From Eledone cirrhosa (lineage: Eukaryota): 64,000 bases of DNA. The position numbers were made by a program, and so were the translations under genes. The notes under the pieces are model-generated. The model did no database searches and was not told the origin of the DNA. It saw nothing but the letters and a program-made list of their open reading frames with translations. Below are positions 20,505 to 22,320 of this stretch, piece by piece. The stretch is taken from assembly GCA_964016885.1 (NCBI GenBank), contig OZ024766.1:20274001-20338000 (forward strand), written 5' to 3'. How positions within the stretch are numbered: the stretch's first letter is position 1; the number at the start of each line of letters is the position of its first letter.

Positions 20505-20627
20505 GGAGTAGTAGTAGTTGTAGTGGTGTGGTAATAGTAATAGTGGGGGTGCTAGTAGTGATAGAAGTAGTAGTAGTAGTGGTAGTAGTGATAGTAGTAA
20601 TAGTAGTAGTAGCAGTGGTAGTAGTAA

Positions 20628-20668
<41 letters not shown>

Positions 20669-20680
20669 ATAGTAGTAGTG

Positions 20681-20714
<34 letters not shown>

Positions 20715-21098
20715 TAGTAGTGGTAGTGATAGTGATAGTGGTAGTAGTAGTAGTCTTAGTGGTGGTGGTGGTAGTAGTAGTAGTGGTAGTGGTAGTAGTA
20801 GTGGTAGTGATAGTGATAGTGGTAGTAGTAGTAGTCTTAGTGGTGGTGGTGGTAGTAGTAGTAGTGGTAGTGGTAGTAGTAGTAGCAGCAGTGGCAGTAG
20901 TAGTGGTAGTAGTAGCAGTAGTAATAGTAGTAGTAGTAGTGGTAGTAGTAGTAGTAGCCATAGTAATGCTAGTAGTAGTAGTAGCAATAGTAGTAGTAGT
21001 GGTGGTGTTAGCAGCAGTGGGAGGTAGTGATGGCAGGAGAAGGTAGTAGTAGTAGTAGCAGTGGTGGTAGTAGTGGTGGTGGTAGTAGTAGTAGTGGT
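20505..21098. repeat. (GTA)n-rich trinucleotide tract
   Basis: Direct inspection. Confidence 0.95.
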
Positions 21099-21107
21099 AC
21101 AACATAC

Positions 21108-21174
21108 CATTAGCGTCACGGTAGTACCCTCGTGTTATACTGCGAAATCTCTCCTGTCCGGCTGTGTCCCATAT
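21108..21174 (-). CDS. RAB37: Rab26/37 exon 4A, switch II variant (IWDTAGQERFRSITRGYYRDAN)
   Basis: 67 nt, acceptor CATTTCAG, donor GTATGT, phase 0-1, WDTAGQE motif. Confidence 0.9.
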
Positions 21175-21194
21175 CTGAAATGGAGGACGGGACA

Positions 21195-21556
21195 TACTAC
21201 TACCACTACTGCCACTACTACTACTACTGCTACTGCTGCTACTACTACTACTGCTGCTACTACTACTACTACCACTACTACCACTACTGCCACTACTACT
21301 ACTACTGCTACTGCTGCTACTACTACTACTACTGTTGCCACTACTACCACTACTGCCACTACTACTACTACTGCTACTGTTGCTACTACTACTACTACTG
21401 CCACTACTACTACTACTACTGTTGCTACTACTACCACTACTACTACTACTACTACTGCCACTACTACTACTACTGCTACTGTTGCTACTGCTACTACTAC
21501 TACTACTGCCACTACTACTACTACTGCTACTGTTGCTACTACTACTGCTACTGTTG

Positions 21557-21591
<35 letters not shown>

Positions 21592-22320
21592 GCCACTACT
21601 ACTACTACTGCTACTGTTGCTACTACTACTACTGCTGCTACTACTACTACTACTACTACTGTTGCTACTACTACTGCTACTGCTGCTGCTACTACTACTA
21701 CCACTACTGCCACTACTACTACTACTGCTACTGTTGCTACTACTACTACTGCTGCTGCTACTGCTACTACTACTGCTACTACTACTACTACTGCTGCTGC
21801 TGCTACTACTACTACTGCTGCTACTACTACTGCTGCTGCTACTACTACTACTACTACTACTGTTGCTACTACTACTACCACTACTACTGCTACTGTTGCT
21901 ACTACTGCTACCACTACCGCCACTACTACTACTACTGCTACTGTTGCTACTACTACTACTGTTGCTACTACTACCACTACTACTACTACTGCTACTGTTG
22001 CTACTACTACTACTGTTGCTACTACTACCACTACTACTGCTACTGCCACTACTGCTACTACTACTACTGCCACCACTACCACTACTACTGCTACTACTAC
22101 TACTACCACCACTACTACTACTGCCACCACTACTACTACTACTACTGCTACTACTACTACTACTACCACCACCACCACTACTGCTACCACTACTGCTACT
22201 ACTACCATACTGCCACTACTACTGCTACCATTACTACAACTGCTACTACTACTACTGCCACTACTACTACTACTGCTACTACTACCACCACCACTACTAC
22301 TTCTACCACTGCCACTACTA
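21195..22320. repeat. (TAC)n-rich trinucleotide tract, opposite orientation to 20505-21098
   Basis: Direct inspection. Confidence 0.95.

Follow-up and report, generated by a model that had tools for sequence, protein, structure and literature searches.

Does an RNA hairpin built from microsatellites decide between two alternative exons, or has it grown around one of them by accident? The question is raised by the Rab26/37 gene of Eledone cirrhosa, in which exon 4A stands between two long trinucleotide tracts of opposite orientation. The first-pass annotation of the window (the whole stretch of DNA analysed here, 64,000 nt) had proposed that pairing of the two tracts hides or presents exon 4A and in this way sets the ratio between 4A and its alternative, exon 4B.

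The Rab26/37 gene and the tracts around exon 4A

Based on tblastn searches with octopus and cuttlefish-like proteins, the minus strand of the window contains a complete Rab26/37 gene, whose exons match Rab26/37 proteins over their whole length and are all consistent in order and strand across the gene (Table 1). The protein segment of exon 6 is 98% identical to the Rab-37-like proteins of O. sinensis and O. vulgaris and 93% identical to that of Argonauta, and the 4A isoform of O. sinensis matches Rab-26 of PDB entry 2g6b with an E value of 6e-87. Exons 4A and 4B are each 67 nt long with AG/GT ends, differ in 5 of 22 residues and encode the G3/switch-II segment of the Rab. The reading frame shifts if both exons are included, or neither. 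They had been described at first as a pair of alternative exons, and this is borne out by O. sinensis, where separate isoforms are annotated: the RefSeq isoforms within each of the pairs X1/X2, X3/X4 and X5/X6 differ solely in the presence of 4B or 4A. Concerning the other exon pair of the gene, exon 2A is identical to that of O. sinensis over its full length and exon 2B differs in 3 residues, located between the P-loop and switch I; 2A/2B combined with 4A/4B would give up to four effector-surface variants of Rab26/37.

Table 1. Positions of the features discussed (window coordinates, except for the last row)
Feature	Position	Strand	Basis
Rab26/37 coding span	8740..47837	-	tblastn
Exon 1A	47718-47837	-	tblastn
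Exon 2A	40097-40207	-	tblastn
Exon 1B	about 29727-29873	-	weak match
Exon 2B	26650-26760	-	tblastn
Exon 3, constitutive, upstream of the 4A/4B pair	23816..23857	-	
Upstream arm, impure (GUA)n, 1,126 nt, (TAC)x376, 79% matches	21195..22320	-	TRF
Spacer, 20 nt unique, polypyrimidine tract and acceptor AG of 4A	21175..21194	-	
Exon 4A, 67 nt, alternative to 4B, G3/switch-II segment, ITRG...N type	21108..21174	-	
Donor of 4A and unique bases ahead of the downstream tract	21100..21107	-	
Downstream arm, impure (UAC)n, 593 nt, (AGT)x197, 75% matches	20507..21099	-	TRF
Exon 4B, 67 nt, VTNA...H type	19432..19498	-	
Exon 5, constitutive, downstream of the 4A/4B pair	13986..14038	-	
Exon 6	10892-11014	-	
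Exon 7	10020-10096	-	
Exon 8	about 8740-8839	-	
21-nt satellite next to the upstream arm	22324-22684		
Inverted pair, 91%	14434-15302 with 36542-37364		
Inverted pair, 96%	28975-29580 with 36584-37191		
Inverted pair, 98%	36986-37361 with 43864-44238		
49-nt minisatellite family	14434-15302, 28975-29580, 36542-37364, 43864-44238, 58894-59193		
Second inverted ACT-class pair	31532-31635 and 33754-34382		
Long-period tandem arrays	16677-18264, 27146-27913		
4A and 4B of metagenome locus L033 (oriented; coordinates of L033)	1331-1397 and 1732-1798		

The trinucleotide tracts had been described as flanking exon 4A nearly up to its splice signals and as leaving it in a loop of ~95 nt, and both statements agree with our analysis: the TRF tracts end 20 nt before and 8 nt after the exon, and the unique island between them (21100-21194) is 95 nt long. 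The order in the transcript is therefore (GUA)n, 20 nt, exon 4A, 8 nt and (UAC)n. The upstream arm contains 238 GUA, 77 GCA, 40 GUG and 15 ACA triplets, and the downstream arm has an internal duplication of its own with no mirror in the upstream arm. The yUnAy branch-point consensus is absent from the upstream arm, and the nearest AG before the acceptor AG of 4A is found at position -24, which suggests that the branch point of 4A is probably weak and lies at the edge of the duplex. The branch-recognition sequence of U2 snRNA is GUAGUA, complementary to UACUAC. The downstream arm contains 71 UACUAC words, GUAGUA is repeated in the upstream arm, and a decoy effect is possible. The upstream arm is adjoined by a 21-nt satellite with a near-palindromic unit, which folds on itself at -97 kcal/mol.

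An Rfam search of 13000-27500 returned no match. Contigs of four sequencing runs, chosen by species label, gave 13 pieces matching 21096-21198, all of which fall inside 21141-21182; this part is a motif common to all Rabs, and the ends of the pieces belong to other, paralogous Rab genes; no part of a 4A transcript was among them. The last residue of 4A is Asn in the window and Asp in O. sinensis, an A-to-G difference. A trace of editing was considered here and rejected, as all 33 metagenome loci with a 4A-type exon (see below) have Asp.

The predicted duplex in a repeat-rich window

Folding of the minus strand with RNAfold agrees with the hairpin suggested at first: the region 20500-21800 folds at -696 kcal/mol. 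The predicted fold contains an arm duplex of 506 base pairs, with 34 bp as the longest uninterrupted helix, and 25 of its 29 single mismatches are A-C. The claim of an imperfect duplex of up to ~600 bp is thus retained as to a long duplex, but its length comes to about 500 imperfect pairs. The best ungapped inverted pair of the arms is 496 nt at 77%, and many further registers are found at 72-77%. With arms of 300 nt, the flank duplex of 4A has -351 kcal/mol compared with -194 for the next-best exon (rank 1 of 11 exons); it is also the strongest of 632 sliding window positions, and the 4A island is also the best among 74 repeat-bounded islands. Exon 4B, which had been said to have no such arrangement, has no ACT-class tract; it has pyrimidine-rich repeats on both sides which are unable to pair, and its flank duplex reaches only -4 kcal/mol.

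For the splice signals of 4A, a 767-nt ensemble predicts 83% pairing and 17% unpaired bases at positions -45 to -21, with 45% of the polypyrimidine tract and 31% of the 4A donor unpaired. In a simulated growing transcript there are 24 cross pairs when 30 intron bases have been made and 162 when 200 have been made. The branch region stays 37-54% unpaired in this fold until more than 100 intron bases have been made, because the pairing register can slip.

UAG triplets and A-C mismatches are favoured by ADARs. The upstream arm contains 236 UAG triplets and the downstream arm 2, and these, the 506 predicted pairs and the share of A-C among the single mismatches agree with the suggestion that the duplex is suitable as an ADAR substrate; the predicted fold would supply the long intramolecular dsRNA within a transcribed region that hyper-editing needs. 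Editing of the 4A duplex, of the general repeat type, is plausible on this model. The suggested Musashi route to neural regulation fared less evenly. Musashi-type motifs are present, with 186 upstream of 4A and 0 downstream, but the side on which they all lie is opposite to the activating side in mouse: according to PMC4991804, exons activated in mouse retina have an enrichment of Musashi sites in their downstream region, and Musashi tethered there brings about activation. The cluster of UAG in the downstream intron that is typical of Musashi-activated exons is lacking at 4A. Going by the position of the motifs, a repressive role of Musashi from upstream would still be conceivable.

Tandem repeats make up 70% of the window, which has six ACT-class tracts, three per orientation, and on either side of 5 of the 11 exons (2A, 3, 4A, 4B and 5) a tandem repeat lies within 50 nt. 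Of 21,550 random pairings of arms that adjoin islands, 61 (0.28%) attain the net score of 4A, and the null expectation of such a score is 0.21 per window (74 islands) and 0.03 among the 11 exons; the null is drawn from this single window, which is unusually rich in repeats, and the 4A arms are part of it. The 4A arrangement is uncommon per gene and unremarkable as an after-the-fact pick from a genome scan. Since 0.28% applies per exon, hundreds of such cases are expected genome-wide if the repeat density of the window is typical.

Better-matched inverted pairs exist in the same pre-mRNA, with 91-98% over 376-872 nt, but they lie 7-22 kb apart, compared with 95 nt for the 4A arms. They belong to a 49-nt minisatellite family which occurs in both orientations in the gene, and between the two members of a pair lies exon 2A, exon 1B or the set of exons from 1B to 4B. 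A second inverted pair of ACT-class tracts is also present, 2.1 kb apart and with no exon in between. Two long-period tandem arrays, with units of 96-139 nt that are 95-97% identical, resemble amplified fragments of mobile elements.

Age of the exon pair and relation between the arms

Both the 4A and the 4B form are found in O. sinensis, in the cuttlefish-like Logan proteins, and in Magallana, Mytilus, Haliotis, Gigantopelta, Babylonia and the chiton Liolophura. A single form (4A or 4B) was retrieved for 19 other tabulated genera, which reflects retrieval and is no proof of absence. The vertebrate, beetle and hemichordate proteins tabulated have the 4B-like form only; apart from one metagenome locus, L033, all sequences seen with the 4A/4B pair are from molluscs. 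By a crude count, the cuttlefish-like Logan proteins have 4B forms on 41 contigs and 4A forms on 2, whereas in oyster 4A lies on 93 and 4B on 8; the counts would fit a lower use of 4A in coleoids and say nothing on the tracts.

When metagenome contigs were scanned by pattern, 33 loci proved to carry a 4A-type exon. L033 is the one that contains both exons, in the order 3-4A-4B-5-6-7-8 as in the window, with a distance of 401 nt between 4A and 4B. Among its named relatives, annelid and bivalve proteins score best, with little difference between the two. L033 has no tandem repeat (0% TRF-masked), and its 4A flank duplex has -110 kcal/mol compared with -290 in the window; the range over 29 loci is -70 to -119, the other 4 of the 33 being left out of this comparison as their flanks are too short. 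The loci L001-L032 have a single 4A-type exon: 15 of the 32 reach exon 5 without an intervening 4B, and 17 do not show exon 5. These loci, partly redundant, represent a more divergent Rab26/37-like gene, possibly a paralogue that retained one form, and they carry little weight here.

Repeat-free flanks are also indicated by the oyster-type read-through frames P0002-P0004, which cover as many as 50 codons ahead of 4A and 113 behind it; translation of triplet repeats (poly-Ser and poly-Tyr/His, as in the tracts of the window) is absent from these frames. Separate 4A and 4B proteins exist in oyster, so the exons are spliced as alternatives there, and L033 would probably splice them in the same way. 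A search for cephalopod genomic read-through frames with 4A flanks found none. Judging from these sequences, the 4A/4B pair is ancient and exists without the tracts, the repeat-free controls being one DNA locus with both exons (L033) and one oyster-type protein read-through, both distant. Orthologous exon pairs without inverted tracts, the kind of observation which the first-pass annotation had itself set against its proposal, are found at phylum distance in L033 and the oyster-type frames. A literature search, with supplements and most subscription papers outside its scope, returned nothing on this locus, on the 4A/4B pair of mollusc Rab26/37 or on exons enclosed by (GUA)n/(UAC)n hairpins.

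Concerning the relation between the two arms, phase-aware shuffling of the upstream arm gives scores of 304 +/- 7 compared with 294 for the real arm, and 190, 191 and 186 of 200 shuffles reach the real arm-pairing score. A fixed-frame shuffle (real 294 vs 246, 0 of 200) was rejected on account of scattered phase-shifted units, and the phase-aware version reversed its outcome. When unrelated ACT-class tracts (from 33754 or 4515) were swapped in, the duplex was stronger than that of the real pair (-565) in three of four cases (-618, -637 and -659) and weaker in the fourth (-537). The variant triplets also differ between the arms: GCA accounts for 77 of about 375 triplets upstream and 10 of about 195 downstream, and ATA is found 14 times in the downstream arm and is outside the ten commonest tokens of the upstream arm. 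Only 59 of 277 distinct 12-mers are common to both arms, and each arm has private internal duplications. There is no tuned complementarity between the arms. The lack of excess complementarity, together with the differing variants and duplications, argues against compensatory evolution, an inverted duplication or a fold-back artefact, and for independent growth of the two tracts.

Explanations of the hairpin

The explanation that we favour, and consider probable, is that the 4A hairpin is an accident of independent microsatellite growth; it would be neither the 4A/4B switch nor needed for the choice. This reading is supported by the age of the 4A/4B choice, which predates the repeats by far and is also found in animals that lack them. 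Selection would have preserved exon 4A together with its splice signals, leaving an island between repeats that advanced on it from both sides. Repeats would have grown likewise at four other exons of the gene, and at 4A two tracts of the same class would have happened to face each other. The resulting duplex is predicted to form soon after transcription, to cover the branch-point region and to be hyper-edited by ADAR like other intronic repeat duplexes, and it would at most passively lower the inclusion of 4A in this lineage. An older mechanism would ensure that exactly one exon is chosen, with the frameshift caused by including both or neither as a backup. The frame and the splice sites of 4A are intact inside the hairpin, so any damping is tolerated. 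What speaks against an accident is that the window has its strongest local duplex at an alternative internal exon, of which there are only four (null expectation 0.03 for any of the 11 exons). The proposal that pairing sets the 4A/4B ratio finds no support, as L033 has both exons without tandem repeats, the oyster-type flanks are ordinary and the arms are untuned.

Several known systems resemble the 4A arrangement in part. Inverted Alu elements provide cases of exon loop-out. Loop-out via complementary flanking intron sequences, as reviewed in section 4.2 of PMC7404189, is similar in that complementary sequences in both introns enclose an alternative exon and would form long dsRNA which ADAR could bind; the 4A arms differ from the cases of that section in being impure trinucleotide microsatellites with many registers, which reach to 20 and 8 nt from the exon. 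A stable flanking duplex is predicted at 4A and the exon is alternative (in O. sinensis and other molluscs), but pairing that is kept or compensated in orthologues, the third mark of such cases, is missing in L033 and in the oyster-type flanks. In zebrafish, (AC)m-(GT)n repeats pair across an intron and promote splicing (Lin et al. 2016, PMC4691745). These are likewise complementary simple repeats near splice sites which pair in the pre-mRNA, whereas the 4A arms sit in two different introns, across an exon, and not at the ends of one. Cross-exon complementary repeats are described in the cited sections of the same paper as largely avoided in zebrafish and are called inhibitory, and its authors report there no Dscam-like mutual exclusion driven by such repeats.

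Complementary simple repeats on either side of an exon are also found in Drosophila Semaphorin-2b, where they drive backsplicing and short ones change the splicing outcome (Kramer et al. 2015, PMC4617980). In the experiments cited from that paper, a 57-nt exon gave no circle and efficient circles came only from inserts of at least 300 nt. A circular RNA from 4A was considered and rejected, as the exon has 67 nt and about 300 nt are needed by the same experiments. Docking and selector systems of the Dscam1 type share with 4A an RNA pairing near a pair of homologous alternative exons; they differ from it in that the window has no docking site with a competing selector per exon, 4B has no partner and the elements are not conserved. 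Tandem-duplicated homologous exons are described for RAB37, of the same gene family, in PMC8373072, and the cited part reports an ancient homologous-exon event shared with Drosophila. This event probably corresponds to 2A/2B here, judging from P0206. That intronic microsatellites can alter splicing was already known, as the cited part of PMC5622345 states.

An explanation which we regard as unlikely attributes the true cis control to a short element of greater age at the donor of 4A. This would be a local hairpin in which the 3' part of the exon pairs with the first intron bases, and the microsatellites would have grown outward from it. Eight of the 9 first intron bases after 4A (21099-21107, minus strand) are common to the window and L033, and the BLAST match runs through them; the introns of the two loci have nothing else in common beyond the exons and this extension of the 4A donor. 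The 4A donor is also predicted to be more paired than the 4B donor, with unpaired fractions of 0.31 vs 0.64 in the window and 0.12 vs 0.45 in L033, and this pairing is predicted already with 10 intron bases made. Moreover, the oyster-type read-through has G-R-L-Y-H where the window has G-M-L-Y-H. However, the element is seen at two DNA loci only, whose hairpins are predicted to differ in register; 22 distinct other 4A-type donors range from 0.10 to 0.71 unpaired, so a paired donor is common, and G-[RM]-L is also found after unrelated exon-4 read-throughs, such as P0229 and P0230.

It is quite unlikely, in our judgement, that the hairpin is a lineage-specific, co-opted switch. In such a switch, 4A would be looped out and its branch point hidden by the duplex, and the 4A/4B ratio would be set by opening of the duplex in some tissues, either through ADAR editing or through a protein that binds UAG, for instance Musashi. 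The best duplex of 11 exons and 632 positions does sit on an alternative exon, the region from -45 to -21 is largely (83%) paired in the ensemble, the upstream arm carries 236 UAG and 186 Musashi-type motifs, A-C makes up 25 of the 29 single mismatches, and the cited Semaphorin-2b experiments (PMC4617980) show that short complementary simple repeats alter splicing in Drosophila. Yet the exon pair exists without the tracts, the arms are untuned to each other, the Musashi motifs lie opposite to the known activating side, and the editing of intronic repeats in squid is of the ubiquitous type and not neural. A more specific form of the idea, which we hold to be very doubtful, has octopod-lineage microsatellites recruited as an editing-sensitive switch: a (GUA)n/(UAC)n duplex made of optimal ADAR triplets would hide the 4A branch point, and ADAR, which varies with tissue and temperature in coleoids, would melt the duplex and swap the switch-II surface, as one of hundreds of such cases genome-wide. 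Long impure microsatellites are hard to assemble and the locus is known here from the assembly alone, but an inverted arrangement made by a fold-back read or a mis-join is highly improbable, as the arms are not mirror copies (variant triplets, private duplications, 59 of 277 12-mers common) and the exons of the gene are all in the correct order and strand.

The arrangement at 4A is real and strikingly large, it adds a case to a known type of structure, and it is most likely accidental. Should the switch be true, fast-mutating repeats would link ADAR activity in coleoids to the choice of isoform. If the hairpin is accidental, it offers a natural test of how much RNA structure is tolerated by an exon, since this one has 67 nt, is conserved and keeps its splice sites intact although about 500 pairs are predicted around it, and given the hundreds of expected cases, selection for or against cross-exon pairing would be measurable genome-wide, as in zebrafish. 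The 4A/4B pair itself is mollusc-wide, from chiton to octopus, and alters the switch-II region of a secretory Rab.
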